Positions 4,555-57,058 are shown, numbered from the stretch's first letter. The stretch is 64,000 nucleotides of DNA from Candidatus Omnitrophota bacterium (GCA_025453395.1 JALOQK010000008.1:938-64937); one strand, 5' to 3'. Notes: generated by a model from the sequence alone, not told the origin. Made by a program: numbers and translations.

Positions 4555-6261
4555 TTATTCGTCAGCTACGGTAACCCTGACAACCTCTTCAATAGTAGTA
4601 AGCCCTCTTAGGGCTGAGTCTATGCCTTCTTCGCGTAAAGTCCTCATCCCCTCTTTCCTGGCTTGATCTTTAATCTGATATTCTTGAGCATGAGAAAGGA
4701 TCATATCCCGTATTTTAACGCTTAAGATAATGACTTCCGCGATAGCAACTCTGCCGCTATAACCAGTATTAAAACATAACGGACATTTCTTGGGGCGGTA
4801 AAATTCACTTTTACTTTTATCTAATTTTAATGCCTCTGCTATTTCCGGGCTTAATGTATATTTTTCTTTACAGTTGGAACAGATCTTACGCACCAACCTT
4901 TGCGCCACAATACCCACCACCGCCGAATTAATCAAGAATGGCTCTACTCCCATATTGATCAGGCGCACAATTGATCCAGCCGCAGTAGTAGTATGCAAAG
5001 TAGAAATAACCAAGTGCCCGGTCAAGGCGCTTTTTATGGCGATGTCCACTGTCTCATAATCACGGATCTCGCCGATCATGATAATGTTAGGGTCTTGCCT
5101 GAGGATTGCGCGCAGGGAACTGGCGAAAGTAAGGCCAATGTCGGGCTTAATGGTCACCTGATTTATCCCATCGAGCTGAAACTCAACCGGATCCTCAACA
5201 GTAACAATGTTTTTATGCGGATCATCCACAAATTTAAGTATGGAATAAAGAGTGGTAGTTTTTCCGCTTCCCGTGGGCCCGGTGACCAAAAACATTCCAT
5301 GCGGCATCTTTGAAGCTTGTTGGATCTTAGTAACATTATTATCAGAAAATCCCAATTTTGCTAAATCCAAGTTGGCTTGGGATTTATCAAGGATACGCAA
5401 TGCCACTTTCTCGCCAAAGCTTGAAGGAATAATGGAAACACGAAAATCTATTTCTCTTCCTGATATGCGCGCCTTAAAACGTCCATCCTGCGGCAGGCGG
5501 TGCTCAGCGATATTAAGATCTGACATGACCTTAACGCGTGAGACTATGGAAGCATGCATGTTAGCCGGGGGCGACTGTTGTTCCTGAAGAACACCGTCAA
5601 TACGAAAACGGACGCGCATTTTCTTGTCCCAAGGCTCGATCAAAATATCTGAAGATTTCTTCTTAACAGCGTCTTCAAGGATAAGATTGGTTACTCTTAT
5701 AACCGGCACTTCGCGGCTGACCCGGGTTAACTCCTGTTCGCTGGGTTGGTTTTCTTTCTCCTCTTTAATAAGTTCAATCCCGGGGACATTTATCTCCTTG
5801 ACCAAATCCTCCATCTCGTCTTTTGTAACATTGGGATAATACAGCTCTATAGCGGCAATAATATCCTGCATCCCGGAAATAATAGGATTAATATTATACC
5901 CGGTCAGGGATTTTACATGGTCAATAGCAAAAATATTCAAAGGATCAACCATAGCCAAAGTAATAGTCTGGCCTATTTTAGAAACGGCTATGATCTGATA
6001 ATGACGGGCGATTTCTACGGGGATTATTCTAGCTGTAGCGGGATCGATCTTAAAACGTTTTAAATCAATAAGCGGCAGGCCCAACCCCTGGCTTAGGATA
6101 GAAACCAAATCCTGTTCCTTGATAAAACCTAAAGAGACAACAATATCGCTTAAGCGGCCTGCCTTTTCCTTCTGGATAGCAATAGCCTTATCCAATTGCT
6201 CGGAAGACAAAAGCTTACTATTAACCAACACTTCTTTAAGACGGTCCTTTAAGGAAAGCAT
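4555..6261 (-). CDS. Second PilB/GspE-family ATPase (tandem paralog) with MshEN-type N-domain
   Basis: 568 aa. MshEN motifs (LKEVLVNSKLLSSEQLDKAIAIQ / RLSDIVVSLGFIKEQDLVSILSQ). Walker A GPTGSGKTT. C-terminal CSNCK...CPLCFNTG zinc motif. Confidence 0.9.
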   Translation of the reverse strand: MLSLKDRLKEVLVNSKLLSSEQLDKAIAIQKEKAGRLSDIVVSLGFIKEQDLVSILSQGLGLPLIDLKRFKIDPATARIIPVEIARHYQIIAVSKIGQTITLAMVDPLNIFAIDHVKSLTGYNINPIISGMQDIIAAIELYYPNVTKDEMEDLVKEINVPGIELIKEEKENQPSEQELTRVSREVPVIRVTNLILEDAVKKKSSDILIEPWDKKMRVRFRIDGVLQEQQSPPANMHASIVSRVKVMSDLNIAEHRLPQDGRFKARISGREIDFRVSIIPSSFGEKVALRILDKSQANLDLAKLGFSDNNVTKIQQASKMPHGMFLVTGPTGSGKTTTLYSILKFVDDPHKNIVTVEDPVEFQLDGINQVTIKPDIGLTFASSLRAILRQDPNIIMIGEIRDYETVDIAIKSALTGHLVISTLHTTTAAGSIVRLINMGVEPFLINSAVVGIVAQRLVRKICSNCKEKYTLSPEIAEALKLDKSKSEFYRPKKCPLCFNTGYSGRVAIAEVIILSVKIRDMILSHAQEYQIKDQARKEGMRTLREEGIDSALRGLTTIEEVVRVTVADE

Positions 6262-6293: not shown

Positions 6294-6737
6294 TTATTCA
6301 CTGTAATATTTGGAAATGGCCTGTTTTATATCTGAAGAAGTAGAAACAAAGGTCTGGATATTGCATCCGGTCAGCATTTCCACATCCTCGATAGCGTGGA
6401 CATTCAAAGGATTAGACATGGCTAAGGTCAAATTATTGCCTATTTTGTCTATCGGGATAAGCACGTATTGCTTGGCAACCCGGCACGGAACAATATTGGC
6501 TACATCAGAGCTTATTTCATAATTACCAAGCGGCAAATACGGAAAACCATACTGCGCGGTTAAGGATTGGGCGATATCTTCTTCCTTGGCAAACCCCAGC
6601 TCCACCATGATCTCTCCGATAAGGCCGCCTCTTTCTTTCTGGCAGTTCAACGCCTTATCAAGCTGGTCTGCGGATACAAGCCCGCGGTCCACCAACAATT
6701 CACCTAATTGCTTATTAATTATTCTTTTTATCGGCAT
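6294..6737 (-). CDS. Stand-alone MshEN (T2SSE_N) domain protein, putative c-di-GMP receptor
   Basis: 147 aa. Both tandem 24-residue MshEN motifs with a 5-aa spacer: QLGELLVDRGLVSADQLDKALNCQ-KERGG-LIGEIMVELGFAKEEDIAQSLTAQ. No ATPase domain. Confidence 0.75.
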   Translation of the reverse strand: MPIKRIINKQLGELLVDRGLVSADQLDKALNCQKERGGLIGEIMVELGFAKEEDIAQSLTAQYGFPYLPLGNYEISSDVANIVPCRVAKQYVLIPIDKIGNNLTLAMSNPLNVHAIEDVEMLTGCNIQTFVSTSSDIKQAISKYYSE

Positions 6738-11117: not shown

Positions 11118-12835
11118 ATAAGCCCTTCCTCAAACATGCGCGTAATAATTTCTTTCGCTATTAAGCAGGCATAATAGCCTGCCTTGCCGTTTTCCAAGAA
11201 AACACAAACAGCAAATTTAGGGCGATCAGATGGGAAAAAACCGGCAAACCATCCGTGCGCAAAAGATCCAGTTACCTGCGCGGAACCTGTTTTGCCTGAT
11301 ACCTTAACTGGCAAATCCGCCAAAATACTGGCTGTACCAGCTGGATCTGATACGGCCTTACGCATGCCATCACTTATGTAATTAACTATCTCTTGCTTGG
11401 AAATAACTTTTATTTTCTTGCCAGAATGCCCCCCTGCGTTATATCCAGCGGCATATTTAGTAACATGCGGAACAACCAAAAAACCACCATTAGCAAAACA
11501 GGCAGTAACTCTTAGTATTTGTATAGGCGTGGTCAATAAATCACCCTGGCCAATAGAAAAATTGGCCGTATCCCCATCATACCATTTTTGATCCCGGCTT
11601 GATTTCTTCCAGGCTACTGATGGCACAAACCCGGATACCTCATATGGAAGATCTATCCCTGTGGTTTTTGCCAAACCAAATCTCAGAGAATAATCTGTTA
11701 TTAGTTGCGGGCCCAAGGCTAAGCCTGTATGATAAAAAAATACATCGCAGGAACCGGCTATGGCCTGTATTAAATCTTGACGGTTATGCGTATCCCAGCA
11801 CTTAAACTGCCGCCTGCCTATTGTTAGAAATCCAGGGCAAATAAAAGAAGTCCCGAGATTTATTTTCTTTTTTTCCAGGCCCGCAACAGCCACAATTAAC
11901 TTAAATATAGAACCAGGCGCATACGAAGCGCTTATCGCGCGATTCAAAAAAGGCGAATGCTTGTCGTTTAAAACCTCTTCAATAGAAGAAGAGCCTTTGA
12001 TAAAAATACCCGGGTCAAAATCCGGGAAACTTGCTAACGCCAGGATTTCCCCTGTATCAGGCTGCATAATAATAACCGCGCCTTTTTGGTTTTGCATCGC
12101 CTGTTGGACGATTTGCTGGATCTTAATATCTAAGGTTAGGCCCACATCGCCACCATTAACAGCAGGCTTATATCCTATTACTCTGACTAATTTTCCGACA
12201 TGATCTACTTCCGCGGATATCGCCCCATCGCCTTGGCGTAAAATATAATCATATTTTTCTTCTGCCCCGCCAAATCCCACAATATCTGCCGGCTTATAAC
12301 CGTAATCGGATAATTTATAAAGCCGCCACTGGTCTATTTGGCTTAGATACCCTAACACATGGCATGCCAGATTGCCATACGGATAATAGCGTAATGGATG
12401 CGGCTGTATGATAATTCCGGGTGAATCAAATTTAGCCTGCTCAAGGGCGATAAGCTTTTTGTTATCAGAAATCGTATCCAAAACAACTGGCAGCGATTCA
12501 GAGATATAACGCGACCTGAATCTCTTCCTAAGCTTCTGCTCATCCTGCTCTAATACAAAGGCGATTTTCCTTAACGCCCTTTCAAGTTCATCTTTATTTT
12601 GCCCTGAAACCATCACATCAAAAGCCAGGTAATTGTCCGCAATAGGATTTCCGTTACGGTCCAAGATCCTTCCTCTTGCGCCTTCTTGAGGCAGAACCCG
12701 GATGCAGTTCTTTTGGCTGAGCAAGCTGAATTTGGCCCCCTGGATTATTGCAAGATTAAAAACCCCAAAGCCCAAAACAACAAAGCTGGCGATAAAAACC
12801 GATATTACAAGTTTTGTCCTGTTCGGATAAGTCAT
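11114..12835 (-). CDS. mrdA: Penicillin-binding protein 2 (elongasome transpeptidase)
   Basis: 573 aa. N-terminal TM. SxxK (SIFK) and KTG (KTGSAQ) motifs. Overlaps mreD and rodA by 4 nt each. Confidence 0.9.
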   Translation of the reverse strand: MTYPNRTKLVISVFIASFVVLGFGVFNLAIIQGAKFSLLSQKNCIRVLPQEGARGRILDRNGNPIADNYLAFDVMVSGQNKDELERALRKIAFVLEQDEQKLRKRFRSRYISESLPVVLDTISDNKKLIALEQAKFDSPGIIIQPHPLRYYPYGNLACHVLGYLSQIDQWRLYKLSDYGYKPADIVGFGGAEEKYDYILRQGDGAISAEVDHVGKLVRVIGYKPAVNGGDVGLTLDIKIQQIVQQAMQNQKGAVIIMQPDTGEILALASFPDFDPGIFIKGSSSIEEVLNDKHSPFLNRAISASYAPGSIFKLIVAVAGLEKKKINLGTSFICPGFLTIGRRQFKCWDTHNRQDLIQAIAGSCDVFFYHTGLALGPQLITDYSLRFGLAKTTGIDLPYEVSGFVPSVAWKKSSRDQKWYDGDTANFSIGQGDLLTTPIQILRVTACFANGGFLVVPHVTKYAAGYNAGGHSGKKIKVISKQEIVNYISDGMRKAVSDPAGTASILADLPVKVSGKTGSAQVTGSFAHGWFAGFFPSDRPKFAVCVFLENGKAGYYACLIAKEIITRMFEEGLI

Positions 12836-15198: not shown

Positions 15199-16551
15199 TT
15201 AGATTAAAATAGCCTTTAAAGTGCTTAGAAAATCCGGAAAAGACTTATCAATGCAGCTGACATCATCTAAAATACTCTCATCCCGGGCTGCTAAGGCGGC
15301 AATAATCAGGCTCATGGCAGTCCGATGGTCATTAAAACTTCTTAAGATAGCCGCGTAAAGCTCTGATGGAGCGTTAATAATAACATCTTCCCCGTATTTG
15401 GAAGGCACAACCTTAATATCTACGCCCATACGGGCCAAATTGCTGCGCATAGACTCTATCCTGTCGGTTTCTTTGAAGCGCAACTCCCCTACCCCGTGAA
15501 AAACACTTTTGCCTTTGGCAAGACTTGCAGCTACCATTAATATAGGAAGTTCATCAATTAAAGACGGCACCTGTTTCGCGGATATATTCACGCCGCTTAA
15601 ACGGCTCGTGCTTACAAAGATATCGCCTGCCGGCTCAAAACGGGAAAATTTGTTATTATATTTTTTAATCCTGATCTTACCGCCCATTCTTTTAAGCACC
15701 CTTAAGAAACCAACGCGCGAAGGATTAAGGCTGACATTTTTGATAATCAAAGATGAATTCCTGAAAACAGCTGCTGCCACAATAAAGAAACTCGCCGAAG
15801 AAATATCCCCCGGAATAGTAATGGCTCCCGGAGAAACAAGCTTATCCAGAGCCTCTACAGAAACACTGTTTTTCTTAATTTCAACAGGCGCGCCAAAAAG
15901 TTTAAGCATACGCTCGGTGTGGTCACGCGTTTTAACAGACTCGATAACTGCTGTTTTTCCTTTTGCGCAAAGCCCTGCCAAAAGTACCGCTGACTTTACC
16001 TGAGCTGAGGCAACCGGCATTTTGTAATTAATAGATTTAAGCCCTCCCCCTTGAATAGTTAGAGGGGCATATTCTTCGGATTTAGCGCCTTTCATTCTTA
16101 CTTTTGAGGTTATCTTAGCGCCCATTAATCTCAAAGGAAGGTTAACCCGCAGCATTGGCCGGCGGCCAAGAGACCTGCCTACCTTAATAGAGGCTCTAAA
16201 ATTACAACCTGCTAAAACCCCCAACACAAGGCGCAAGGTCGTGCCGGATTCAGCAATAAAAAGCCTGCCGCTTTGGGGTCTCTTAAGATTCTTAAGCCCT
16301 TTGCCGTGCACTGTTACTAATAACCCGGGAAATCTTTTATTATTGCTCTTACGAAAACAGATATCCACGCCTAATTTTTGCAAAACTTCTATCGTGGAAA
16401 GGCAATCCTGATTGGCGGGAAAATTACTGATCACAACTTTGCTACTTGATAAAGCGCTTATTATAGCGCTTCTATGGGCAATGGACTTATCACCTGAGAA
16501 ACAAATCCTGCCTCTTAACCCTGCAGCCGGCCGAATTAAGAAAAAACACAT
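15199..16551 (-). CDS. aroA: 3-phosphoshikimate 1-carboxyvinyltransferase (EPSP synthase)
   Basis: 450 aa. SGDKSIAHRSAIISAL near the N-terminus and NDHRTAMSLIIAALA near the C-terminus are EPSPS signatures. Confidence 0.85.
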   Translation of the reverse strand: MCFFLIRPAAGLRGRICFSGDKSIAHRSAIISALSSSKVVISNFPANQDCLSTIEVLQKLGVDICFRKSNNKRFPGLLVTVHGKGLKNLKRPQSGRLFIAESGTTLRLVLGVLAGCNFRASIKVGRSLGRRPMLRVNLPLRLMGAKITSKVRMKGAKSEEYAPLTIQGGGLKSINYKMPVASAQVKSAVLLAGLCAKGKTAVIESVKTRDHTERMLKLFGAPVEIKKNSVSVEALDKLVSPGAITIPGDISSASFFIVAAAVFRNSSLIIKNVSLNPSRVGFLRVLKRMGGKIRIKKYNNKFSRFEPAGDIFVSTSRLSGVNISAKQVPSLIDELPILMVAASLAKGKSVFHGVGELRFKETDRIESMRSNLARMGVDIKVVPSKYGEDVIINAPSELYAAILRSFNDHRTAMSLIIAALAARDESILDDVSCIDKSFPDFLSTLKAILI

Positions 16552-18578: not shown

Positions 18579-19307
18579 TTAGCGTTTGTTAAGCTGGATC
18601 AGTTTTAGGCAAGCAAAGATAAAAAAACCCGCGCTTATAATCTGGAATAAGCTTAAGCCGTAAAAGAAATGCGGATTATCCGCGCGCAAGAATTCCATAA
18701 AAAACCTCTTGGTTGAGTATAATAAAAGATACCACAAGAATACCTGGCCCTGTCTATGGGGCTTATCCTGTAAGTTCTTCAGGAAAAGAAAAAGCGCAAA
18801 AAGAATAATGCTTGAATAAAGTTGCGTTGGAATAAGAAAGGCGTCATGCGCGGGAAAATACATCCCCCATATTTTGTTTTCCCTGCCGTAGCAACAGCCA
18901 TTTAAAAAACACCCCAGCCTGCCAATGGCATGGCCTAATGCCAAAAACGGCGCCAATAGATCAAGTACCGTGTAGATTCTTAATTTGTTTCTTTTGACAT
19001 AATATAACGCGGTTAATGACCCGGCAGTAAAACCGCCAAACCAGGACATTCCGCCGTGCTGCAGCATGATTATTTCTAAAGGTTCAGCCAAATAATCCCT
19101 AAAATGCTCTACTACAAAAAATATCCGCGCCCCCAAAATCCCCGCGATAAAAGAATAAAAACAAAGATTGTAGATTATGTTGGGATCTATCCCTTGCTTC
19201 TTAGCCTGACGGCAAGCTAAGGATACCGCGGTTAAAAAAGCAACAACCATCATTAAACCGTAGGAATAAATGGTAAATGGACCGATTTGACAGATAATTG
19301 GATGCAT
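18579..19307 (-). CDS. lgt: Prolipoprotein diacylglyceryl transferase
   Basis: 242 aa polytopic membrane protein. N-terminus MHPIICQIGPFTIYSYGLMMVVAF and Lgt signature region GHAIGRLGCFLNGCCYG. Confidence 0.9.
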   Translation of the reverse strand: MHPIICQIGPFTIYSYGLMMVVAFLTAVSLACRQAKKQGIDPNIIYNLCFYSFIAGILGARIFFVVEHFRDYLAEPLEIIMLQHGGMSWFGGFTAGSLTALYYVKRNKLRIYTVLDLLAPFLALGHAIGRLGCFLNGCCYGRENKIWGMYFPAHDAFLIPTQLYSSIILFALFLFLKNLQDKPHRQGQVFLWYLLLYSTKRFFMEFLRADNPHFFYGLSLFQIISAGFFIFACLKLIQLNKR

Positions 19308-19400
19308 AATTTTAATTTAAAGCTTAAAACGCAAAGCGTAAAACCATAGCGTAAAATTAAAAATTTTGAATTTTGAATTATAGTTTTGCGTTTTTCGTTT
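19308..19400. repeat. Palindromic intergenic element, copy 2 (inverted relative to copy 1)
   Basis: Its reverse complement matches 9960-10015 (aattttacgctatGgttttacgctttgcgTttta). Internally palindromic (aaaacgcaaagcgtaaaacc / ggttttacgc...). Confidence 0.5.
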
Positions 19401-19872
19401 TACGCTTATTTGTTATTAATATTGTCCATCCTAACAACATTGCTCCTGCTGTTATCGCCGAATCCGCGATATTGAACACCGGCCAGATACGAAAATCCAG
19501 AAAATCAACCACATAACCAAACATCAAACGGTCAATAAGATTTCCCAGGCCGCCGGCAAGGATCAAGGTTAAAGAAAAATTACAAAGGTTGTTCTTATAG
19601 CCCTCTTTTTTAAGCTTGCGGATTATAAAAAAACTCACCAGCAAAGTAATGGCGATAAAAATCCAGCGTTGATATTTGAATAGGCCAAATGCCGCGCCGC
19701 GGTTATGCACCAAAGTAACATGAAAAACATTCTGGATAACCGGGATAGATTGATAAAGGTATAGTTTTGAGGAAACAAAGGCCTTACTAAGCTGATCAGC
19801 AATAATAAGGCCAAAGAGAAATAAAGAAAATTTAAAGAAAGGTTTTATTTTTTTTCCAGTTTTTCCTGACAT
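19378..19872 (-). CDS. lspA: Lipoprotein signal peptidase II
   Basis: 164 aa. Conserved NRGAAFGLF and FNIADSAI motifs. Classic ileS-lspA linkage. Confidence 0.9.
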   Translation of the reverse strand: MSGKTGKKIKPFFKFSLFLFGLIIADQLSKAFVSSKLYLYQSIPVIQNVFHVTLVHNRGAAFGLFKYQRWIFIAITLLVSFFIIRKLKKEGYKNNLCNFSLTLILAGGLGNLIDRLMFGYVVDFLDFRIWPVFNIADSAITAGAMLLGWTILITNKRKTKNAKL

Positions 19873-20228: not shown

Positions 20229-23047
20229 GCTGAAATCCCCCCTATGGCTTTAAGGCAAGTCTTACAGATTGACGGATGCGCATCATCTTCCCCCACCGAA
20301 TGCGAATAATTCCAACAGCGCATGCATTTTACCCCATCTGCTTTACTGGCGGCCAGGCATACATCCGGAAAAACGGTATTACGCCAATCTCCACCAGAAA
20401 TAAGATCTTTGGATTCTTCCACAATCACAGAAGAAACTTTAAAGGCCTCACAGAGCTGTTGGCTTAAGCTGCGTAAGAATGTATACTGATTAGGGGACTT
20501 TGTCAATATATTTATTTTGGCGTCAAAAGAACTGCCGATTATTCCGGCAATGCGCTTCTCTTCTAAAGCCTTGGCAACATCGGGGACCATCTTAAGGACC
20601 TCTTCCATATCTTGATAAGCCAAAGAGCCATGGACCTTGCCGGATTCCAACAAAGACAAAATAAGCCTGGTATCTGGATATTCCAAAAGATGCACACTGG
20701 CGGCATCTTTATCTTTAGAAGTTTTAGGCATATAAAACCATATTTCTTCAGCGGTAAAAGACAAAATCGGCGCGACTACCCTTACGATCGCATTTAACAA
20801 ATCATATATCGCCGTCTGAGCAGACCTTCTTTCAAGGGAATCTGCCCCGTATGTATACAATCTGCCCTTTACCATATCCAAATAATACATGGATAGATCT
20901 TCATTGCAAAAATCATAAATACCTTTATAGGCTTTATAAAATTCAAATTCTTCATAGCCGTTTGTTATAACTTTATCAAGCGCAAGGCAACTTTTATAGA
21001 GTATCCATTTATCAAGCATGCCCATATCATCATAGCTTATTCTGTCTTTATCGGGATTAAAATCATAGAGGTTGCTTAAGATAAACCTGCAGGTGTTGCG
21101 CACTTTACGGTAACCTTCCGAGAGCCTTTGCAGGATTTCTTTGGATATTCTTATATCCTCGTTGTAATCGCTTGAAGCCACCCACAGGCGCAAAATATCC
21201 GCGCCATAGTCTTTTATAATATCAAATGGAGAAACCACATTGCCTTGCGACTTGGACATTTTTCTTCCCTGACCATCCACCACAAAACCATGGGTTAGGA
21301 CACTTTTAAATGGCGCCTGATTATCAATGCAGACAGCCGGGATAAGCGAAGACTGGAACCACCCCCTATGCTGGTCTGAACCCTCAAGGTACAAAGAAGC
21401 GGGAAATTCCAATTCACTTCTTTTCTTTAATACTGACTGGCTGCTTACTCCGGAATCAAACCATACATCAAGGATATCTGTGCCTTTAGAGAATATTTTT
21501 CCCGCGCAGCAAGGGCATTGGATGTCTTTATATAAAAACTCCTGCACGCCAGATTCAAACCAAACATCCGTTCCATTTTCTTTAACCATCTGGCGGAATA
21601 CCTCAATAACCTTATTATCCAGGAATTCTTCTTTGCAATTATTGCATACCAAAGAGGGAATCGGCACCCCCCAATATCTTTGACGCGATAAACACCAATC
21701 CGGGCGCAAGCCCACCATTGAACCAATGCGCTCTTTTCCCGAAGAGGGAATCCACTTCACCTTATTTTGGATTACTTCAAGTAAAGCCTGCCTGAGATTA
21801 TTATGTTCAAGTTTTAAGAACCATTGATTTGTCGCTCTGAAAATAACCGGTGACTTGCAGCGCCAGCAATGCGGATAAGAATGCGGATATTTCATGCTAT
21901 AAACAAGCATCCCTAAACTATCCAATTTTTGTATGATCGGATCATTGGCAGAAAATACCTGCATCCCTTTAAATTCACCGGTAGAAGCGTCAAAATTCCC
22001 CCGGTTATCAACCGGCATAATAATATCCAACTTGTATTTTATCCCGGTGAAATAATCGTCATTGCCATGCCCGGGAGCGGTATGCACCAAACCAGTGCCT
22101 TCTTCATGTGAAACATAATCTGCCAAAACTACTTTTCCTTTTCTATCTAAAAAAGGATGCTCATAAACAAGCCCATCCAGCTTTTCGCCTTTAATGCGGG
22201 AAATAACCGCACATTGGCCAAGGCCGGTATTTTTTATAACTGTATCGAGCAGGCTTTCGGCAATAACTAAAATTCCTTTCGCAGTGTTTACCAAAACATA
22301 TTCCAGTTTTTGATGCACTGCTACTGCCACATTAGCCAGAAGCGTCCAGGGGGTGGTAGTCCAAATCAATAAATAAGCGTCTTGGCCATCTAAGGGATTG
22401 GTTAATTTAAATTTCACATAAACAGAGGGAGAAACATGATCCTCGTATTCAACCTCTGCCTCGGCAAGGGCGGTTTCACATTTATAACACCAGTTAACCG
22501 GCTTTAATCCTCTATAGATATACCCCTTCTGCGCCAGTTTGCCAAAAGAATCCACTATCCCCTCTTCATACTGGCGTGATAAAGTAAGATACGGATTATC
22601 CCAATCCCCGAATATACCTAAACGCTTAAACTGTTCTTTCTGCAAACCCACATATTTCATCGCGTAATCATGCGCTTTCTTGCGGAAATCAAGCTGCGAT
22701 ATCTGGGTTTTATTGATCTTTAATTCCTTTAACAACTGATGCTCAATGGGCAACCCATGGCAATCCCAACCCGGAACATAGGCGCAATTAAAAGCACGCA
22801 TGGTTTTATATTTAAGAATGATATCCTTAAGTGTCTTGTTTAAGGCATGGCCTATATGTATATCCCCGTTGGCATAAGGCGGCCCGTCATGCAAAATATA
22901 TTTTGGCAAACCTTGAGTTTTATTCTGGATAGAAACGTAAATATTCTTCTTCTCCCACTGCTCAAAAATAACGGGCTCTTTCTTGGGCAGATCCGCCTTC
23001 ATGGGAAAATCAGTTTTAGGAAGATTAAGAGTAAGTTTATAGTCCAT
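20225..23047 (-). CDS. ileS: Isoleucyl-tRNA synthetase
   Basis: 940 aa. HIGH (DIHIGHALNK) and KMSKS motifs. N-terminus MDYKLTLNLPKTDFPMKADLPKKEP is canonical for IleS. C-terminal zinc-binding cysteines. Confidence 0.97.
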   Translation of the reverse strand: MDYKLTLNLPKTDFPMKADLPKKEPVIFEQWEKKNIYVSIQNKTQGLPKYILHDGPPYANGDIHIGHALNKTLKDIILKYKTMRAFNCAYVPGWDCHGLPIEHQLLKELKINKTQISQLDFRKKAHDYAMKYVGLQKEQFKRLGIFGDWDNPYLTLSRQYEEGIVDSFGKLAQKGYIYRGLKPVNWCYKCETALAEAEVEYEDHVSPSVYVKFKLTNPLDGQDAYLLIWTTTPWTLLANVAVAVHQKLEYVLVNTAKGILVIAESLLDTVIKNTGLGQCAVISRIKGEKLDGLVYEHPFLDRKGKVVLADYVSHEEGTGLVHTAPGHGNDDYFTGIKYKLDIIMPVDNRGNFDASTGEFKGMQVFSANDPIIQKLDSLGMLVYSMKYPHSYPHCWRCKSPVIFRATNQWFLKLEHNNLRQALLEVIQNKVKWIPSSGKERIGSMVGLRPDWCLSRQRYWGVPIPSLVCNNCKEEFLDNKVIEVFRQMVKENGTDVWFESGVQEFLYKDIQCPCCAGKIFSKGTDILDVWFDSGVSSQSVLKKRSELEFPASLYLEGSDQHRGWFQSSLIPAVCIDNQAPFKSVLTHGFVVDGQGRKMSKSQGNVVSPFDIIKDYGADILRLWVASSDYNEDIRISKEILQRLSEGYRKVRNTCRFILSNLYDFNPDKDRISYDDMGMLDKWILYKSCLALDKVITNGYEEFEFYKAYKGIYDFCNEDLSMYYLDMVKGRLYTYGADSLERRSAQTAIYDLLNAIVRVVAPILSFTAEEIWFYMPKTSKDKDAASVHLLEYPDTRLILSLLESGKVHGSLAYQDMEEVLKMVPDVAKALEEKRIAGIIGSSFDAKINILTKSPNQYTFLRSLSQQLCEAFKVSSVIVEESKDLISGGDWRNTVFPDVCLAASKADGVKCMRCWNYSHSVGEDDAHPSICKTCLKAIGGISA

Positions 23048-23051
23048 TTTT

Positions 23052-23106
23052 CAGCTATCAGCTATCAGCTATCAGCTATCAGCTATCAGCTATCAGCTAT
23101 CAGCTA
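23052..23106. repeat. Tandem heptanucleotide array (CAGCTAT)x~8 abutting the ileS start codon
   Basis: Perfect 7-nt repeats read directly at 23052-23106. On the minus strand the mRNA leader reads (ATAGCTG)n AAAA ATG. Confidence 0.95.
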
Positions 23107-23141
23107 AAAAAGCTGAAGACTGAAAGCTGAAGGCTGAAAGC
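23107..23141. repeat. Degenerate heptamer array (RCTGAAR)x4 between the mtnP stop and the CAGCTAT array
   Basis: The sequence read directly is gctgaag actgaaa gctgaag gctgaaa. Confidence 0.8.
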
Positions 23142-23999
23142 TTAAATATATTTTCCTATAATTATCTTTAAATCCTTTTTTACTTTCGCCGGAATCATTT
23201 TTCTATCAGTGACAATCGCGCATTTTAAGGCATCCTGACAAGAACATACGCGCTTGTCAGGCAGCGCTTTAACGATCTGAATAATCATTTTCTTGGCGTT
23301 TTCAATATTCCTTTGCAGATTTTGCATCACCATATCCACCGTCACGCTTGCGTGCTTGGGATACCAGCAGTCATAATCTGTAACAGCGGCCAAAGTAGAG
23401 TAACATATCTCTGCTTCTCGGGATAGTTTTGCTTCAGCCATATTGGTCATTCCAATTATGTCCATGCCCCAACTTCGGTAAAGATTCGATTCAGCCAAAG
23501 TTGAGAATGCCGGGCCTTCCATGTTAATATAAGTCCCGCGAGGATGAATGTCTAATTTCAGCTTCTCGCCCGCAGCATAAACTACCTTTGCCAAATCTTG
23601 GCAAACAGGATGCGCGAAAACTATATGCGCCACAATGCCTTCATCAAAAAATGTCATCGCGCGAGCGTTATTAGTGCGGTCCACAAACTGATCAATAACC
23701 ACAAAATCAAGCGGCTTGAATTCTTCTTTAAGGCTGCCGCAGGCGCTTATGGAAACAATGCTTTCCACGCCAAGTTTCTTCATCCCATAAATATTGGCGC
23801 GGTAATTTATTTGGCTGGGAGAAATACAATGCCCTCTTCCGTGGCGAGGAAGAAAAACAACTTCTTTGCCCTCTATTTTCCCGGTAATAAATTTATCTGA
23901 AGGCTTGCCAAAAGGAGTGCTTAATGCGACCTCTTTTATGCCCTTCAAACTATCAATCTGATATAAACCGCTACCGCCAATAATCCCCAATTTAGACAT
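23142..23999 (-). CDS. mtnP: S-methyl-5'-thioadenosine phosphorylase
   Basis: 285 aa PNP/MTAP fold. Glycine-rich N-terminus LGIIGGSGLY. Confidence 0.88.
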   Translation of the reverse strand: MSKLGIIGGSGLYQIDSLKGIKEVALSTPFGKPSDKFITGKIEGKEVVFLPRHGRGHCISPSQINYRANIYGMKKLGVESIVSISACGSLKEEFKPLDFVVIDQFVDRTNNARAMTFFDEGIVAHIVFAHPVCQDLAKVVYAAGEKLKLDIHPRGTYINMEGPAFSTLAESNLYRSWGMDIIGMTNMAEAKLSREAEICYSTLAAVTDYDCWYPKHASVTVDMVMQNLQRNIENAKKMIIQIVKALPDKRVCSCQDALKCAIVTDRKMIPAKVKKDLKIIIGKYI

Positions 24000-24008
24000 T
24001 TTGTCCTC

Positions 24009-24830
24009 CTAGGCAGCTAATTCTTTAGCCCTTTTAATAGACGCCATGATCGCGTCTTTTAATGTCCCGCCAGAATTAAGCACATCTAAGCCTGCCTGGG
24101 TTGTCCCGCCTTTAGATGCCACCTGCTGACGCAGCCCTACAGGATCCGCGCCATTCTCAAGCATTTTGTCTGCCCCGCGCAAAGTAATCAAAGACATAAA
24201 ATGTGCCTGATCAGGGCTGAACCCTAAAGACCTTGCCGCATCCTCAAGCTCGGCGGTAAAATTTTCCATAAAACCAGACCAGTTATTTTTATAAGCTTCC
24301 GGGTTATTGGCTACCGCGTTAAAAAACCACCCCGGCCCACTGCCGGAAATCGCGGTAGCTTCATCCATTTTCGCTTCGTCAATAGCCATAACTTCTCCCA
24401 TATACTCAAATACATCTTGCGCGAAATCAAAATCTTCAAGGCTGGCGTATTTACCAGAGCACAAGCAAGTCATCCCATAACCAATACGAGCAGGCATATT
24501 TGGCATAACCCTAACCACCCTAACCACCCCTAAAAGGTTTTCTATATAAGAAGTGCCCAGGCCGGCTGCGATAGAAATAAAAAGTTTATCCAGAATATGC
24601 GGGTACTTTTTTATTTGGCCTAAAAGTTCTGCGAAATCCTGCGGTTTCACCGCCAAAATTATCGCGTCCGCTTTCTCCAGTAATTCCTGGATAGAACCTA
24701 CCGCTTGGATATCTTCAACAGAAGATACCCTAGCCTTATCCTTTTCATAGGCAAAAACCGTATAAGTATTTTTTATCTTTGAGGCGATTGCCTGGCCCAT
24801 GTTGCCTAAACCGATTATCCCTATTTTCAT
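24009..24830 (-). CDS. proC: Pyrroline-5-carboxylate reductase
   Basis: 273 aa. N-terminal NADP Rossmann motif IGIIGLGNMGQAIA. ProC C-terminal dimerisation domain. Confidence 0.9.
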   Translation of the reverse strand: MKIGIIGLGNMGQAIASKIKNTYTVFAYEKDKARVSSVEDIQAVGSIQELLEKADAIILAVKPQDFAELLGQIKKYPHILDKLFISIAAGLGTSYIENLLGVVRVVRVMPNMPARIGYGMTCLCSGKYASLEDFDFAQDVFEYMGEVMAIDEAKMDEATAISGSGPGWFFNAVANNPEAYKNNWSGFMENFTAELEDAARSLGFSPDQAHFMSLITLRGADKMLENGADPVGLRQQVASKGGTTQAGLDVLNSGGTLKDAIMASIKRAKELAA

Positions 24831-24836
24831 TTTATC

Positions 24837-25526
24837 TTACCTTTCAAATATCGCTCTGCCTAATCTTATTATTGTGGCGGCTTCTTCAATAGCAATTTCA
24901 AAATCATCGCTCATGCCCATGGAAAGCTGTAAGCTATAAGCTGTAAGCTTTAAGCTGTAAATCTTATCCCTTAATTCCCTAAGCTGGCGAAAATAGGGAC
25001 GCGCTTCTTCGGGCGCACTAACTAAAGGGGCGATGGTCATTAAACCTTTTAATTTTATATTTTTTAAAGAAGCGATCTGTTTTATAACCAAAACCGCGTC
25101 ATCAGGACTTAAACCAAATTTTGTTTCTTCTGGAGAAGTCTTTATCTGTAGTAATATCTGCTGTACTTTATTGATCTTGGCAGCCTGCCTATCGATTTCC
25201 TCTGCCAGGCGCAGGCTATCTACAGAATGAATCAAATCAAAGATCCTAACCGCATCTTTTACTTTATTAGTCTGCAAGTGGCCGATCATATGCCATTTAA
25301 TGGCAAATGGCAAATGGCAAATGGCAGACAGCTGATTAAATTTCAAAACAGCTTCTTGGACTTTATTCTCGCCGATATCAGATATGCCCTGTTGTAAAAC
25401 CTCTTGTATTTCTTGGGCGCTTCTGCCCTTGGCTACCGCAACAATAGTTATTTCAGAAGGGTCGCGGTTTGCTTTAAGGCAGGCCTGACCGACACGAAAA
25501 CTAACATCAGCCAATCCATTATACAT
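24837..25526 (-). CDS. yggS: YggS/YlmE-family PLP homeostasis protein
   Basis: 229 aa. HMIGHLQTNK and LSMGMSDDF signatures. Carries two in-frame heptamer-repeat insertions. Confidence 0.85.
   Translation of the reverse strand: MYNGLADVSFRVGQACLKANRDPSEITIVAVAKGRSAQEIQEVLQQGISDIGENKVQEAVLKFNQLSAICHLPFAIKWHMIGHLQTNKVKDAVRIFDLIHSVDSLRLAEEIDRQAAKINKVQQILLQIKTSPEETKFGLSPDDAVLVIKQIASLKNIKLKGLMTIAPLVSAPEEARPYFRQLRELRDKIYSLKLTAYSLQLSMGMSDDFEIAIEEAATIIRLGRAIFER
24924..24960. repeat. Heptamer tandem array (AAGCTNT)x5 inside the yggS coding sequence
   Basis: aagctgt aagctat aagctgt aagcttt aagctgt. Encodes YSLKLTAYSLQ just before the LSMGMS motif. Confidence 0.9.
25299..25326. repeat. Heptamer tandem array (AATGGCA)x4 inside the yggS coding sequence
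   Basis: Four perfect copies. Encodes the atypical insert HLPFAIKW immediately before the conserved HMIGHLQTNK. Confidence 0.9.
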
Positions 25527-25547
25527 AAAAACCCCTGAGGCACAATC

Positions 25548-26804
25548 TTAAAAATACTCCAGGTACAAAGCCTTGGCTTGATCAACTAACCTCTGTAATG
25601 GTTTGCGGCTAGCGTCATGAGGAAAAATAAACCCGGGCAATTTATCGTTTTCCAAAACCTCAACTAAAATGCCAAGGCAGGTAAGATACCCCAAATATTT
25701 CATCCCGGAAAGTTTAGGGTGGTTGATCAATGAAGAAACTCTCTGGGAGCTGACACGGGCAAGCTGCACCGGAAAAGAAAAAACAGACTCTGCTTTCTCC
25801 AAGAAACCTTCCTGTAAAACTGTGCCTCCGTATAAAACAAAATTAGTCACTTGGTTACTATTAAAATTAACAAAGGCATTTTTCTTGATTTCTTCAAGCA
25901 AACACTTTGCGCTATTGGTCACAACATCAACGATAAGCTTATGGCTTATCGGCTTATAGATATTATCCCTTTTGATTAAGATTTCTTTATCTACTGCAGG
26001 CGAAGCTGCCAAATAAATACTGCCGTATGTTTTCTTTACTTCTTCAGCCAAAGAATAAGGAATTCCTATTTCTTTAGAAATGGCCAGCGTAATATCATCT
26101 CCTCCGATGGGCAAATTGTGCACTTCTTTTAACATGCCATTTTCTAAGATAACAAGCTGCGTTATGTCGCTTCCAATATCGCAGAAAATACTTAAACCCT
26201 GCTTCATTTTCTCTTCAAAAAGAAGCTTGCTGGTAATCATCCCTGAATAAAATACCTCTTTTAAGTCAAGCCCCGCCTGACTTATAGCGCCAGTTAAATT
26301 CTGAAGGCAAGAAAGGCGCGCGCAAATAAGGTACAAATCTACCTGCAAACGGTGGCTGTATAGGCCTATTGGGTTGACAATATCTGCTTTATTATCAATA
26401 GCGTAACCAAAAGGCACCTCTGCAATAATCTCATCTTCCATGTTAGATCCCAAAATCCGCGCCTGAAGATTGGCTTTTTCTACATCAAAAGAAGTAATTA
26501 CCTTATTGCCTCTTTCCGCCAAAGGGATGATCGCATGGCTATGACGGGCGCTTATATCCTCACCGGCGATATTAGCATAAACATATTTTATCTGAATGCC
26601 GGAATTATTTCTAATCTTCTTGAATAAACTGCCTAAGGCTTTTACCAATTCTATTGAATCAACAACCGACCCTCTTCTTAGGCCGCAGGAAGGGATACTT
26701 TCAAAGAAAACCTCAGCAATCTTGCCTTGGGCAAGCCTTGCTACAGCCACAGATATCTTGCTTGATCCTATATCTAACGCGCAGATACTACGTTTACTGA
26801 ACAT
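25548..26804 (-). CDS. ftsA: Cell division protein FtsA
   Basis: 418 aa actin-fold. ALDIGSSKI phosphate-1 motif. Position downstream of ftsQ at the end of the dcw cluster. C-terminal extension. Confidence 0.9.
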   Translation of the reverse strand: MFSKRSICALDIGSSKISVAVARLAQGKIAEVFFESIPSCGLRRGSVVDSIELVKALGSLFKKIRNNSGIQIKYVYANIAGEDISARHSHAIIPLAERGNKVITSFDVEKANLQARILGSNMEDEIIAEVPFGYAIDNKADIVNPIGLYSHRLQVDLYLICARLSCLQNLTGAISQAGLDLKEVFYSGMITSKLLFEEKMKQGLSIFCDIGSDITQLVILENGMLKEVHNLPIGGDDITLAISKEIGIPYSLAEEVKKTYGSIYLAASPAVDKEILIKRDNIYKPISHKLIVDVVTNSAKCLLEEIKKNAFVNFNSNQVTNFVLYGGTVLQEGFLEKAESVFSFPVQLARVSSQRVSSLINHPKLSGMKYLGYLTCLGILVEVLENDKLPGFIFPHDASRKPLQRLVDQAKALYLEYF

Positions 26805-26821
26805 GTGATCCTTATCCTTTT

Positions 26822-27583
26822 TTAGTCAGTCTCATAGAATTTGATTGCCGGCTCCTTAAAACGTAAATCCACATACTTGATATTTATATTACTTTTTGAC
26901 GACTGATTAAGCAGGTTTCCCAAAAGGCTTATTTTTTCTTTTAAGTCTGCCAGGTCAAACCTCACTTCTATTCCCCTGCCAAAAGGCAATGGATAGATCA
27001 TGCAAGAAAAACCTTCCGGCGGGCTTGCGTCTATTTCCCGCAAGGCATAGCCCTTAAGGCTTTTCTTTTCCCTAAAAGCTGTGGCTATTTCTATGGCCAA
27101 TTTTAATTCACGCACCTGGTATTTCTTGCCTGACTGGGCGCCGAATATCTTTGTATCAAGCCCGGTGATTACCGGCATTCCGGTAACGGGAGAATTTTCT
27201 TCGCAAAGAAATAATACCCCTTCTTCATCGGTATAAAAATACCGGTATAATTTCACAAAGGCCACGGGAGACCTTTTCAAAAAATCAACCCATAAGATAC
27301 CGGGCAATAAACGGGTAATCCTGATCTTGCTGTAACCGGAATACCTATTCTCAAGTTGAAGCGACAAAGCCCGCAGATCGACTGAGAAGATATTGCGCCC
27401 CTTCAAATAAGAAAGGTTGAATTCATTATTTTTAGACGCTACCTCTTGGATTATGAAATATTCCGATTGCCTTAAGAACATGGAGATGCCGGATACGCAA
27501 GAAGCAACGCCTAAAACAAGAATTATAAGTATAACCCCTATAGCAAAGAATTCTTTGTTTTTCTTAAAGGCTTTGGCAGACAT
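26822..27583 (-). CDS. ftsQ: Cell division protein FtsQ/DivIB
   Basis: 253 aa. Single N-terminal TM, POTRA-like region. Position between ddl and ftsA. Confidence 0.7.
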   Translation of the reverse strand: MSAKAFKKNKEFFAIGVILIILVLGVASCVSGISMFLRQSEYFIIQEVASKNNEFNLSYLKGRNIFSVDLRALSLQLENRYSGYSKIRITRLLPGILWVDFLKRSPVAFVKLYRYFYTDEEGVLFLCEENSPVTGMPVITGLDTKIFGAQSGKKYQVRELKLAIEIATAFREKKSLKGYALREIDASPPEGFSCMIYPLPFGRGIEVRFDLADLKEKISLLGNLLNQSSKSNINIKYVDLRFKEPAIKFYETD

Positions 27584-50021: not shown

Positions 50022-50094
50022 TCGGGGGAGTGGGACTTGAACCCACGGCCTCAGCGTCCCGAACGCTGCGCTCTACCAAGCTGAGCCACCCCCC
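50022..50094 (-). tRNA. tRNA-Pro (anticodon CGG)
   Basis: rc reads CGGGGGGTGGCTCAGCTTGGTAGAGCGCAGCGTTCGGGACGCTGAGGCCGTGGGTTCAAGTCCCACTCCCCCGA. Cloverleaf with a 7-bp acceptor stem, GTTCAAGTC T-loop and anticodon loop TTCGGGA. Confidence 0.9.
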
Positions 50095-50120
50095 GTTATT
50101 TTCCGAAATTTAACTTTACA

Positions 50121-53049: not shown

Positions 53050-53514
53050 TTAGATTTTCTCCATGATGTTTGCCATCTCTATAGCGCTTATGGCAGCGTC
53101 TTTACCTTTATTGCCGTCTTTGGTGCCAGCGCGTTCAATAGCCTGTTCAATTGTATCAGCGGTAATCACCCCAAAAATAACCGGCAAACCTGCATCTAAA
53201 GAAACCTTGGCTGTGCCTTTTGAAACTTCCGCAGCCACATAATCGAAATGCGGAGTAGAACCGCGTATTACTGTGCCTAAACAGATAAGCGCGTCGTAGG
53301 TTTTAGATTCAGCCATTTTTGATGCTACTAAAGGCAACTCAAATGCCCCCGGCGCCCAAACCAATGTTATATCTTTCTCGTCAGCTCCATGCCTTACCAA
53401 AGTATCAATACAGCCAGCAACCAATTGCTTAGTCACAAAATCATTAAACCGCGAAGCAATGAGCGCGAATTTCTTTTGTTTTGCGATTAAGTTTCCCTCT
53501 ATTGTTTTTACCAT
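53050..53514 (-). CDS. ribH: 6,7-dimethyl-8-ribityllumazine synthase
   Basis: 154 aa. [16 protein letters not shown] and [14 protein letters not shown] motifs. GGAGGA Shine-Dalgarno upstream. Confidence 0.92.
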
Positions 53515-53535: not shown

Positions 53536-53696
53536 ACTAAATATATAATCCCAATAACCAATGACCAAATCTCAATCACCAAATAAATTCCAATAATCAA
53601 TAACCAATTTACCAAACAGGTTTGGTAAATTGGGCAATTGGTAATTGGTTATTGTTTGATTATTGGTGCTTGATAATTGGTTATTAATCATATGAA
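53536..53696. repeat. Long imperfect palindrome built from CCAAT/ATTGG units between ribBA and ribH
   Basis: Arms ...ccaataatcaataaccaatttaccaaac / gtttggtaaattgggcaattggtaattggttattgtttgattattgg centred on ccaaacaggtttgg (53612-53625). Confidence 0.5.
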
Positions 53697-56995: not shown

Positions 56996-57051
56996 TAATT
57001 CCCCGCAACCCACCCCCATCCCCGACTCACAACTCAGAACTCAGAACTCAT
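56996..57051. repeat. C-rich (G4-prone on minus strand) tract followed by an (AACTCAG)x3 heptamer array
   Basis: ccccgcaacccacccccatcccc then gactcac aactcag aactcag aactcat, in the pgsA-pgpA intergenic region. Confidence 0.6.
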
Positions 57052-57058
57052 CCTATCT

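Follow-up and report, generated by a model that had tools for sequence, protein, structure and literature searches.

In-frame heptanucleotide repeats at two fixed sites of the housekeeping gene yggS in Candidatus Omnitrophota

Tandem repeats of seven nucleotides are over-represented in some bacteria, where they are poorly understood, show a preference for about four units and are mostly intergenic, near gene ends (Rehm et al. 2015, PMC4692102). Examples are the short tandemly repeated repetitive (STRR) sequences of heterocystous cyanobacteria and the GGGNATC repeats of Xanthomonas and Nostoc (PMC4692102). Four-copy heptamers of the GGACCGG family have been reported in Geobacter metallireducens, in 49 copies located both within and between genes (Aklujkar et al. 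2009, PMC2700814). A heptamer array within a gene is known from neuO of E. coli K1, where the variable-number tandem repeat (AAGACTC)n at the 5' end comprises 3-53 copies, varies by single units and is in the OFF state in 66% of genomes (PMC13001214); full-length protein is obtained only when the repeat number is divisible by three (PMC13001214). Here we analyse a stretch of 64,000 nucleotides from a Candidatus Omnitrophota bacterium (GCA_025453395.1, JALOQK010000008.1:938-64937), referred to as the window, in which two heptamer arrays lie in frame within yggS, a gene of the pyridoxal 5'-phosphate (PLP) homeostasis protein family (COG0325). This 64-kb window is the DNA of the source organism that was analysed, and all positions are counted from its first letter. 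Two other kinds of genic repetitive DNA serve as points of comparison, namely the Rickettsia palindromic elements (RPEs), which are palindromic mobile elements of ~100-150 nt, and the Borg genic repeats, whose unit lengths are divisible by three. A literature search, part of which was too generic to be informative, found no report linking Omnitrophota with heptanucleotide repeats.

The yggS gene (24837..25526, minus strand) is an open reading frame (ORF) of 229 amino acids hosting array 1 at a position that we call site 1 and array 2 at site 2. Our analysis suggests that array 1 is fairly likely to be an in-frame heptanucleotide microsatellite occupying one of two fixed cassette sites, shaped by slippage, by selection for three-unit changes and by recombination. 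Arrays were detected using Tandem Repeats Finder (TRF) and a separate exact-repeat scan, with dinucleotide-type shuffles as the null, at a strict threshold of at least 4 copies with at least 85% match and a looser one of 3 copies with 90% match. The strict scan of the window yields period-7 arrays at 23045-23110, 24922-24960, 25296-25332 and 57021-57052, and nothing at the remaining periods between 4 and 14; shuffled sequence yields no arrays. Period 7 is the only enriched tandem-repeat period in the window and chance is excluded.

Array 1 is located at 25299-25326 and consists of four perfect copies (TRF, 100% matches) of AATGGCA on the plus strand, which corresponds to TGCCATT on the coding strand. 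An earlier, sequence-only reading of the window had described this array as lying in frame in yggS ahead of a conserved motif, and both TRF and the exact scan confirm it. However, the segment assigned to it in that reading (HLPFAIKW) has to be corrected. The codons GCC ATT TGC CAT TTG CCA TTT GCC ATT encode A-I-C-H-L-P-F-A-I (residues 68 to 76), while K77 and W78 lie outside the array, which directly precedes KWHMIGHLQTNK in YggS. Three successive units make up 21 nt and, being read in three phases, encode 7 residues. One base away from the array, on the minus strand, an inverted copy of the unit (25291..25297, AATGGCA on the coding strand) is present within the codons AAA TGG CAT of K77, W78 and H79. 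It is not found in relatives and is probably coincidental.

Array 2 is located at 24924-24960 on the minus strand and can be described either as 5.3 copies of AAGCTGT with 86% match or as a period-14 repeat with 95% match. Its coding strand reads ACAGCTT AAAGCTT ACAGCTT ATAGCTT ACAGCTT and encodes YSLKLTAYSLQL (Y190-S-L-K-L-T-A-Y-S-L-Q-L201), immediately ahead of SMGMSDD. The earlier proposal of two frame-preserving arrays in yggS therefore stands as far as a second in-frame array is concerned, but this array is imperfect and adds no length to the protein. DNA identity at a lag of 7 within the window gene is 0.82 at site 1 and 0.86 at site 2.

The two arrays are hosted by a normal member of the YggS/PLPBP family, for which PLP binding is predicted. 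Proteins of this family are ~220-260 aa long and consist of a single (beta/alpha)8 barrel of the alanine-racemase-N type, with an N-terminal PLP lysine (K36 in E. coli) and the motifs HxxGxLQxNK and SMGMSxD as hallmarks. They bind PLP and act in vitamin B6 and amino-acid homeostasis. The window product matches the Pfam domain Ala_racemase_N (PF01168) over residues 30-227 (3e-20) and, over its full length, the Protein Data Bank entries of Fusobacterium YggS (7ygf, 3e-39), PipY (4e-38) and E. coli YggS (6e-31). K33, H79, G82-H83-L84-Q85, N87-K88 and S202-M203-G204-M205 are invariant among 97 YggS sequences; in the alignment with 7ygf, K33 falls on the 'vavtK' lysine and, from established knowledge of YggS, we take it to be the PLP lysine. 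The best 120 homologs are 59-69% identical, 219-249 aa long and all full length, in a set that is biased toward intact genes. An AlphaFold model built from a 97-sequence alignment (pLDDT 91.1; a 32-sequence model with pLDDT 59.5 was discarded) superposes on E. coli YggS with a TM score of 0.90-0.92 and a root-mean-square deviation of ~1.9 Å. In this model array 1 supplies the final turn of helix H56-68 and the loop that leads into strand E77-80, and array 2 likewise connects the C-terminal end of helix H172-191, through a loop, with strand E200-203. Each cassette is thus predicted to contribute the C-terminal turn of a helix and an alpha-beta loop up to the point where the following strand begins.

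Analysis of related genes reveals that the same two sites are repetitive across the clade. The clade sample comprises 15 yggS genes as DNA and ~105 homologs as protein; below, L-numbers denote loci and P-numbers protein homologs (L214 is P0009 and L215 is P0013). Residue identity at lag 7 among 105 homologs is 0.21 at site 1 and 0.29 at site 2, compared with 0.02-0.10 at most other lags, the exception being lag 10 at site 2 (0.17). Typical peptides are LSTIDYR-LSTI, LSAIRYP-LSAI and LRTPNSE-LRTV at site 1, and LRVTSYE-LRVL and LQLTAYS-LQLL at site 2. Each cassette is followed directly by an invariant motif, KWHM[VI]GHLQTNK at site 1 and LSMGM[ST]DD at site 2. At the DNA level, site 2 is heptameric in all 15 clade genes, with a lag-7 identity of 0.61-0.89, while site 1 is heptameric in 8, octameric in 4 and non-repetitive in 3. 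Control yggS genes of other phyla were taken from the matches listed in a genome-collection scan with protein alignment, and further ones from a metagenome scan for WHM[VI]GHLQTNKVK, in which the matches listed are mostly from other phyla and include 3-4 clade members. In 115 yggS genes of other phyla the lag-7 identity at site 1 averages 0.26 and reaches at most 0.43. A distant Omnitrophota yggS (L023, 46% identity) contains neither array.

Nearly every clade member has arrays at both sites, whereas the unit sequences are lineage-specific. The site-1 heptamer is TGCCATT in the window, GACTATC in L004 and L083, CACCTAT in L003, ACTCCGA in L088, GGGTTAC in L200, CTATACG in L210 and CCTAACA in L212. 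Octamer arrays occupy site 1 in L098 and in the yggS genes of L087 (10001-10702), L209 (1743-2438) and L211 (134-829), for example AACCAGCG in 3.5 copies and CGAACCGG in 3-4 copies, forming a 12-aa cassette instead of a heptamer array. These 8-nt units in four relatives do not agree with a process confined to heptamers, as had been supposed from the window. At site 1 it is the position that is conserved rather than the period. In the L200 yggS gene (532-1230), the site-1 unit GGGTTAC/GGGATAC and the site-2 unit GTTACCC are near reverse complements; these arrays are ~375 nt apart and could pair in the mRNA, a feature not seen in the window gene.

Array 1 had been regarded in the sequence-only reading as an insertion, and comparison of lengths changes this view. 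At 229 aa the window YggS has the modal length for the clade, and alignment with 31 close homologs shows site 1 to be ungapped relative to the majority and site 2 to be one residue shorter. The spacing at site 1, measured in nucleotides from VQE of the GENxVQE motif to the Trp, is 57 nt in the window and 54-60 nt in the clade, compared with 39 nt in 92 of 109 control genes. These spacings give the whole clade ~6-7 aa more at site 1 than other phyla have, with an estimated 6 aa for the window gene and not the 7 expected from three added units. The spacing at site 2 is 69 nt in the majority of the clade, 66 nt in the window and 69 nt in those controls where it is measurable; alignment of array 2 with 7ygf and PipY contains no gap, and site 2 adds no residues. 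A private insertion of 7 aa in the window gene is ruled out by the modal length and the ungapped site 1.

Length changes that do occur keep the reading frame in steps of 21 nt, as the sequence-only reading had anticipated. L214 and L215 differ by a gap of exactly 21 nt at site 1, with TCAGC direct repeats at its flanks, and P0009 is correspondingly 7 aa shorter at site 1. Site 2 is shorter by exactly 7 aa in P0021 and P0100 and longer by 7 aa in P0054. The related expectation that copy numbers would be enriched for multiples of three was ill-posed, as coding arrays have ~4-5.3 copies and only changes in number must be multiples of three. Concerted changes are also seen. The site-2 unit ACAGCTT of the window is ACGACTT in all units of L215, and L213 has the GCCATT core of the window in all four site-1 units, with the seventh base alone varying (GCCATTN vs GCCATTT). 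In L212, an unaltered third copy of the unit CCTAACA would place TAA in frame; that copy instead reads CCCAACA (T>C). On its 3' side, site 1 always terminates at the conserved x-Ile-Lys-Trp codons, and the Ile codon recurs in register in every unit.

Cassettes can also differ in their entirety between otherwise similar genes. The pairs L209/L210 and L211/L212 are ~99.8% identical over 460 nt downstream of site 1 and ~94-95% identical upstream, and the cassettes within each pair are unrelated, heptameric in one member and octameric in the other. L004 and L085 are ~95% identical but contain a wholly different 36-nt block of equal length. Protein pairs with 92-96% identity over the rest of their sequence often have completely different residues at site 1, and protein comparison shows a limited set of cassette types recurring in different backgrounds. 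The genealogy of the cassettes is, as judged from these sequences, decoupled from that of the gene. Each base of a homogenised unit serves in turn as first, second and third codon position, so that such a unit has no silent sites. This could be the reason that a cassette is either preserved unchanged or substituted as a whole. Three pairs of records with the same YggS (L001/L002, L083/L084 and L085/L086) are 100% identical and uninformative on copy-number polymorphism.

The excess of period 7 extends beyond yggS. At the strict threshold, 181 kb of Omnitrophota DNA contain 18 period-7 arrays and none of periods 5, 6 or 8-12, compared with one period-7 array in 356 kb of other phyla. At the looser threshold the density is 121 per Mb in Omnitrophota and 9.6 per Mb in 1.78 Mb of other phyla, a difference of ~12-fold. 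A genome-wide expansion of heptamers had been proposed from the window; the lineage-specific excess of period 7 bears this out, but the process is not uniform, since 15 of the 18 coding arrays found fall in yggS, always at the same two sites, and this gene makes up ~5% of the coding sequence in the survey. In-frame heptamer arrays in other coding DNA, which the same reading had foreseen, exist in murB and aroA, and all three of these non-yggS arrays belong to a single array-rich genome, L083. The murB array (5889-5922) accounts for 7 aa more than in the window, as a 7-9-aa insertion, while the two aroA arrays (18768-18808 and 19207-19247) leave the length as in orthologs. Units are reused within L083: CAGCTGN recurs in aroA and an intergenic array at 16298-16332, while two arrays between genes (6397-6472) have the CTATCGA/CTATAGA units of yggS sites 1 and 2. 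The window, as 64 kb of a genome, contains at least four unrelated units (TGCCATT, ACAGCTT, TAGCTGA and GAGTTCT) with partial reuse of CTTACAG/CTTTCAG.

The explanation we favour combines slippage, tolerance by the protein, selection and recombination. Slipped-strand mispairing would create and renew arrays in a lineage with a strong bias toward slipping at period 7, and at the two places in yggS the protein would accept nearly any sequence provided that its length is right. Among coding arrays, selection would pass only net changes of three units, remove in-frame stops and hold the flanking codons. Homologous recombination with breakpoints at or near the arrays may then shuffle cassette types among lineages. 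The N-terminal strand face of a (beta/alpha)8 barrel lies, by general geometry, away from the PLP site, and the residues encoded by the repeats would be tolerated filler in two loops on this face. The repeat as such probably has no dedicated function, and slippage, neutrality and recombination are themselves inferred.

Several observations weigh against this explanation. The Omnitrophota survey amounts to only ~215 kb of DNA, which comes mostly from a single syntenic neighbourhood. No array is found as DNA in any other gene of the 64-kb window, and a search for cryptic arrays in the other window proteins shows lag-7 residue identity to be no higher than at other lags. The concentration of coding arrays in yggS is not explained by neutral tolerance alone. 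Furthermore, identity between the window gene and L214 is 67% overall and 48% at third codon positions, but 94% in array 2, where 11 of 12 third positions agree (binomial p ~0.002); this could reflect a nucleotide-level constraint or a recent transfer. Both genes also share C/A/C/T/C at the second position of the array-2 units, which argues against continuous homogenisation. The yggS concentration, the synonymous conservation of array 2 and the preference for 7 nt thus stay unexplained, and because of these three points a functional nucleic-acid element and diversifying selection are kept as live rivals.

A bolder view is that yggS carries a self-renewing, hypervariable cassette system in which microsatellites of 7 or 8 nt, anchored on the invariant codons at their flanks, repeatedly rewrite two loops of YggS throughout the clade and lineages swap cassettes at recombination breakpoints associated with the arrays. 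The concentration in yggS would then be due not to tolerance but to a function of the DNA or RNA (as a signal for recombination, pausing or regulation) or of the protein (through diversifying selection), or to a dedicated repeat-generating activity. We regard this as rather unlikely.

It is likewise unlikely, and a little more so, that the arrays are functional nucleic-acid elements at two fixed places of yggS, acting as a binding site of a repeat protein, as a signal for recombination or replication pausing, or in regulation of proC, and that the coding sequence does no more than make room for them. The conservation of the sites across the clade despite their differing sequences, the share of coding arrays that falls in yggS and the conserved synonymous sites of array 2 in the window and L214 would all suit such an element, as would the coincidence of identity breakpoints with site 1 in two near-identical pairs and the precedent of the Geobacter four-heptamer elements, which occur in and between genes and have been proposed to be regulatory. 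However, units are wholly different in close relatives and have a period of 7 or 8, which makes a sequence-specific binder unlikely, and three clade members are without a site-1 array. RNA folds of the coding arrays are not unusual (z = -0.5 for array 1 and -0.1 for array 2), and a search of the window against Rfam gives no match except a tRNA at 50022-50095 (minus strand).

Hypervariable patches on the protein surface under diversifying selection, for example to escape or to match an interacting factor, with microsatellite turnover and recombination as the source of variation, would account for wholesale cassette differences between genes that are otherwise 92-96% identical, for the recurring cassette types and for the sharp boundaries of the variable block. 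YggS is, however, a cytoplasmic housekeeping protein for which the analysis points to no known partner, some distant genes keep the same cassette, and in the model both sites appear to precede the N-termini of strands, on the barrel face away from the ligand site. We consider this explanation improbable.

Equally improbable is an RPE-like origin, in which a mobile or templated element, copied from arrays of the same genome, was inserted in frame. Unit families shared between sites in L083, the CTTACAG/CTTTCAG similarity in the window and the additional 6 aa at site 1 relative to other phyla are what such copying would leave behind. But the coding arrays contain no conserved element sequence, terminal repeats or palindromic structure, and the arrays at site 2 and in aroA replace sequence without changing length. 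The units at site 1 are in register with the flanking Ile codon, as expected for growth in place.

The repeat unit, being no multiple of three and lying inside coding sequence, has the architecture of neuO, and yggS could be imagined as a phase-variable contingency gene switched off and on by one-unit slippage. However, the arrays are short (4 and 5.3 copies) and occupy codons 68-76 and 190-201 of 229 rather than the 5' end, the indels seen are of 21 nt, and the best 120 protein matches, albeit a set biased toward intact genes, are full length. The five clade loci that were found regardless of reading frame (L003, L004, L098, L152 and L200), although a small sample, are all in frame across both arrays, an outcome with p ~0.005 at the 66% OFF rate of neuO, and phase variation is accordingly very improbable. 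Chance or an assembly artefact, for which nothing speaks beyond the general fragility of repeats in short-read assemblies, can be practically dismissed, as shuffles contain no such arrays, a JGI contig of 65.5 kb and a Logan contig both encode the exact window protein with identical sequence, the reading frame is intact and dozens of independent assemblies have repeats at these two sites.

Intergenic arrays of the window are unlike the coding ones in forming roughly complementary pairs that give long hairpins. A perfect (TAGCTGA)x8 array (23051..23106, minus strand) ends 3 nt before the start codon of ileS, and five GCTTTCA-like copies (23109..23142, minus strand), roughly complementary to it, come right after the stop of a PNP-family gene. 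The spacer between this stop (23142) and the ileS start (23047) consists wholly of these two arrays. The fold of 23040-23150 has -49.6 kcal/mol and z = -6.1, with 0 of 200 shuffles as good; the hairpin ends 3 nt before the ATG, and no Shine-Dalgarno-like sequence is visible at the ileS start. The intergenic unit CTTTCAG is one base off the yggS site-2 unit CTTACAG. In L083 the ileS spacer also contains a heptamer array (12408-12436), with a unit different from that of the window. Site 2 of the L152 yggS gene (1286-1320) is a perfect (CTATCAG)x4, the same unit as in the window array at 23051-23106 (TCAGCTA on the plus strand), a match that hints at a unit repertoire common to the genomes and to coding and non-coding sites.

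Two further degenerate arrays on the minus strand (53551..53654), CCAATAA-like and TTGGTAA-like, are mutually complementary and lie upstream of a gene at 53050-53514 that has a strong AAGGAGG ribosome-binding site. The region 53540-53670 folds into a hairpin of -40.6 kcal/mol (z = -4.3). Heptamer-periodic arms at 19319..19401 (minus strand), AAAACGC/AAAGCGT against GTTTTGC, form an imperfect hairpin, the fold of 19300-19410 having z = -2.35, while the fold of the intergenic (GAGTTCT)x3.7 array (57025..57050, minus strand) is not unusual (z = -0.75).

The yggS gene is flanked by ftsA (25548-26804) and, downstream, by proC (24009-24830). The order ftsA, yggS, proC, PNP-family gene and ileS, resembling a division and cell wall (dcw) cluster, is present in the window (24009-27583) and in L083, L085, L087 and L088. 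No gene with an FtsZ/tubulin Pfam domain is present in any of the ~20-kb syntenic loci. An ORF of 56 aa on the opposite strand (25227-25397, plus) runs through array 1; it lies wholly inside yggS and is most likely spurious.

Non-triplet repeats thus persist in the gene of a conserved enzyme, at two shared positions throughout an uncultivated clade. They offer a natural system for studying how slippage-prone DNA coexists with protein constraint, why period 7 is favoured, and whether bacterial microsatellites can serve as breakpoints for recombination or as a source of loop diversity. The yggS cassette sites would be sensitive strain markers for Omnitrophota populations, and their variability calls for caution with gene callers and alignments in this group.

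Comparison with the known systems places these arrays close to, but not within, each of them. Like the Geobacter elements, they are tandem heptamers of about four copies dispersed in the genome. Unlike Geobacter, where a single consensus unit is used genome-wide, units vary here between arrays and lineages, and the Geobacter report does not describe arrays kept at one position of an orthologous gene throughout a clade. The comparison with cyanobacterial STRR elements, suggested by the sequence-only reading, holds in that a lineage-specific excess of period 7 and a preference for about four units are common to both (4.0 perfect copies in array 1 and 3.7-8 in the other arrays of the window, by TRF). 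The intergenic arrays of the window also fit the location pattern of the STRR and GGGNATC repeats, but the location of two arrays inside a conserved enzyme gene, with AT-rich and diverse units, does not. As the organism and the related loci are Omnitrophota, the arrays are not STRR in the strict sense, which is reserved for heterocystous cyanobacteria. The likeness to neuO lies in a heptamer array translated in three phases, for which frame-keeping numbers are needed; unlike neuO, the yggS arrays have 4-5 copies, lie mid-gene and near the 3' end and are always in frame in the loci seen. RPEs and Borg repeats are similar in being repetitive DNA tolerated in genes, in permissive surface segments, and differ from the 7-nt microsatellite held here at fixed sites of one orthologous gene; among the relatives no conserved or palindromic element sequence of the RPE type is found, and the coding arrays fold normally. 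What is new here is the fixed position of the arrays in one orthologous housekeeping gene across the clade, together with a diversity of units that includes 8-mers and with mosaic cassettes.

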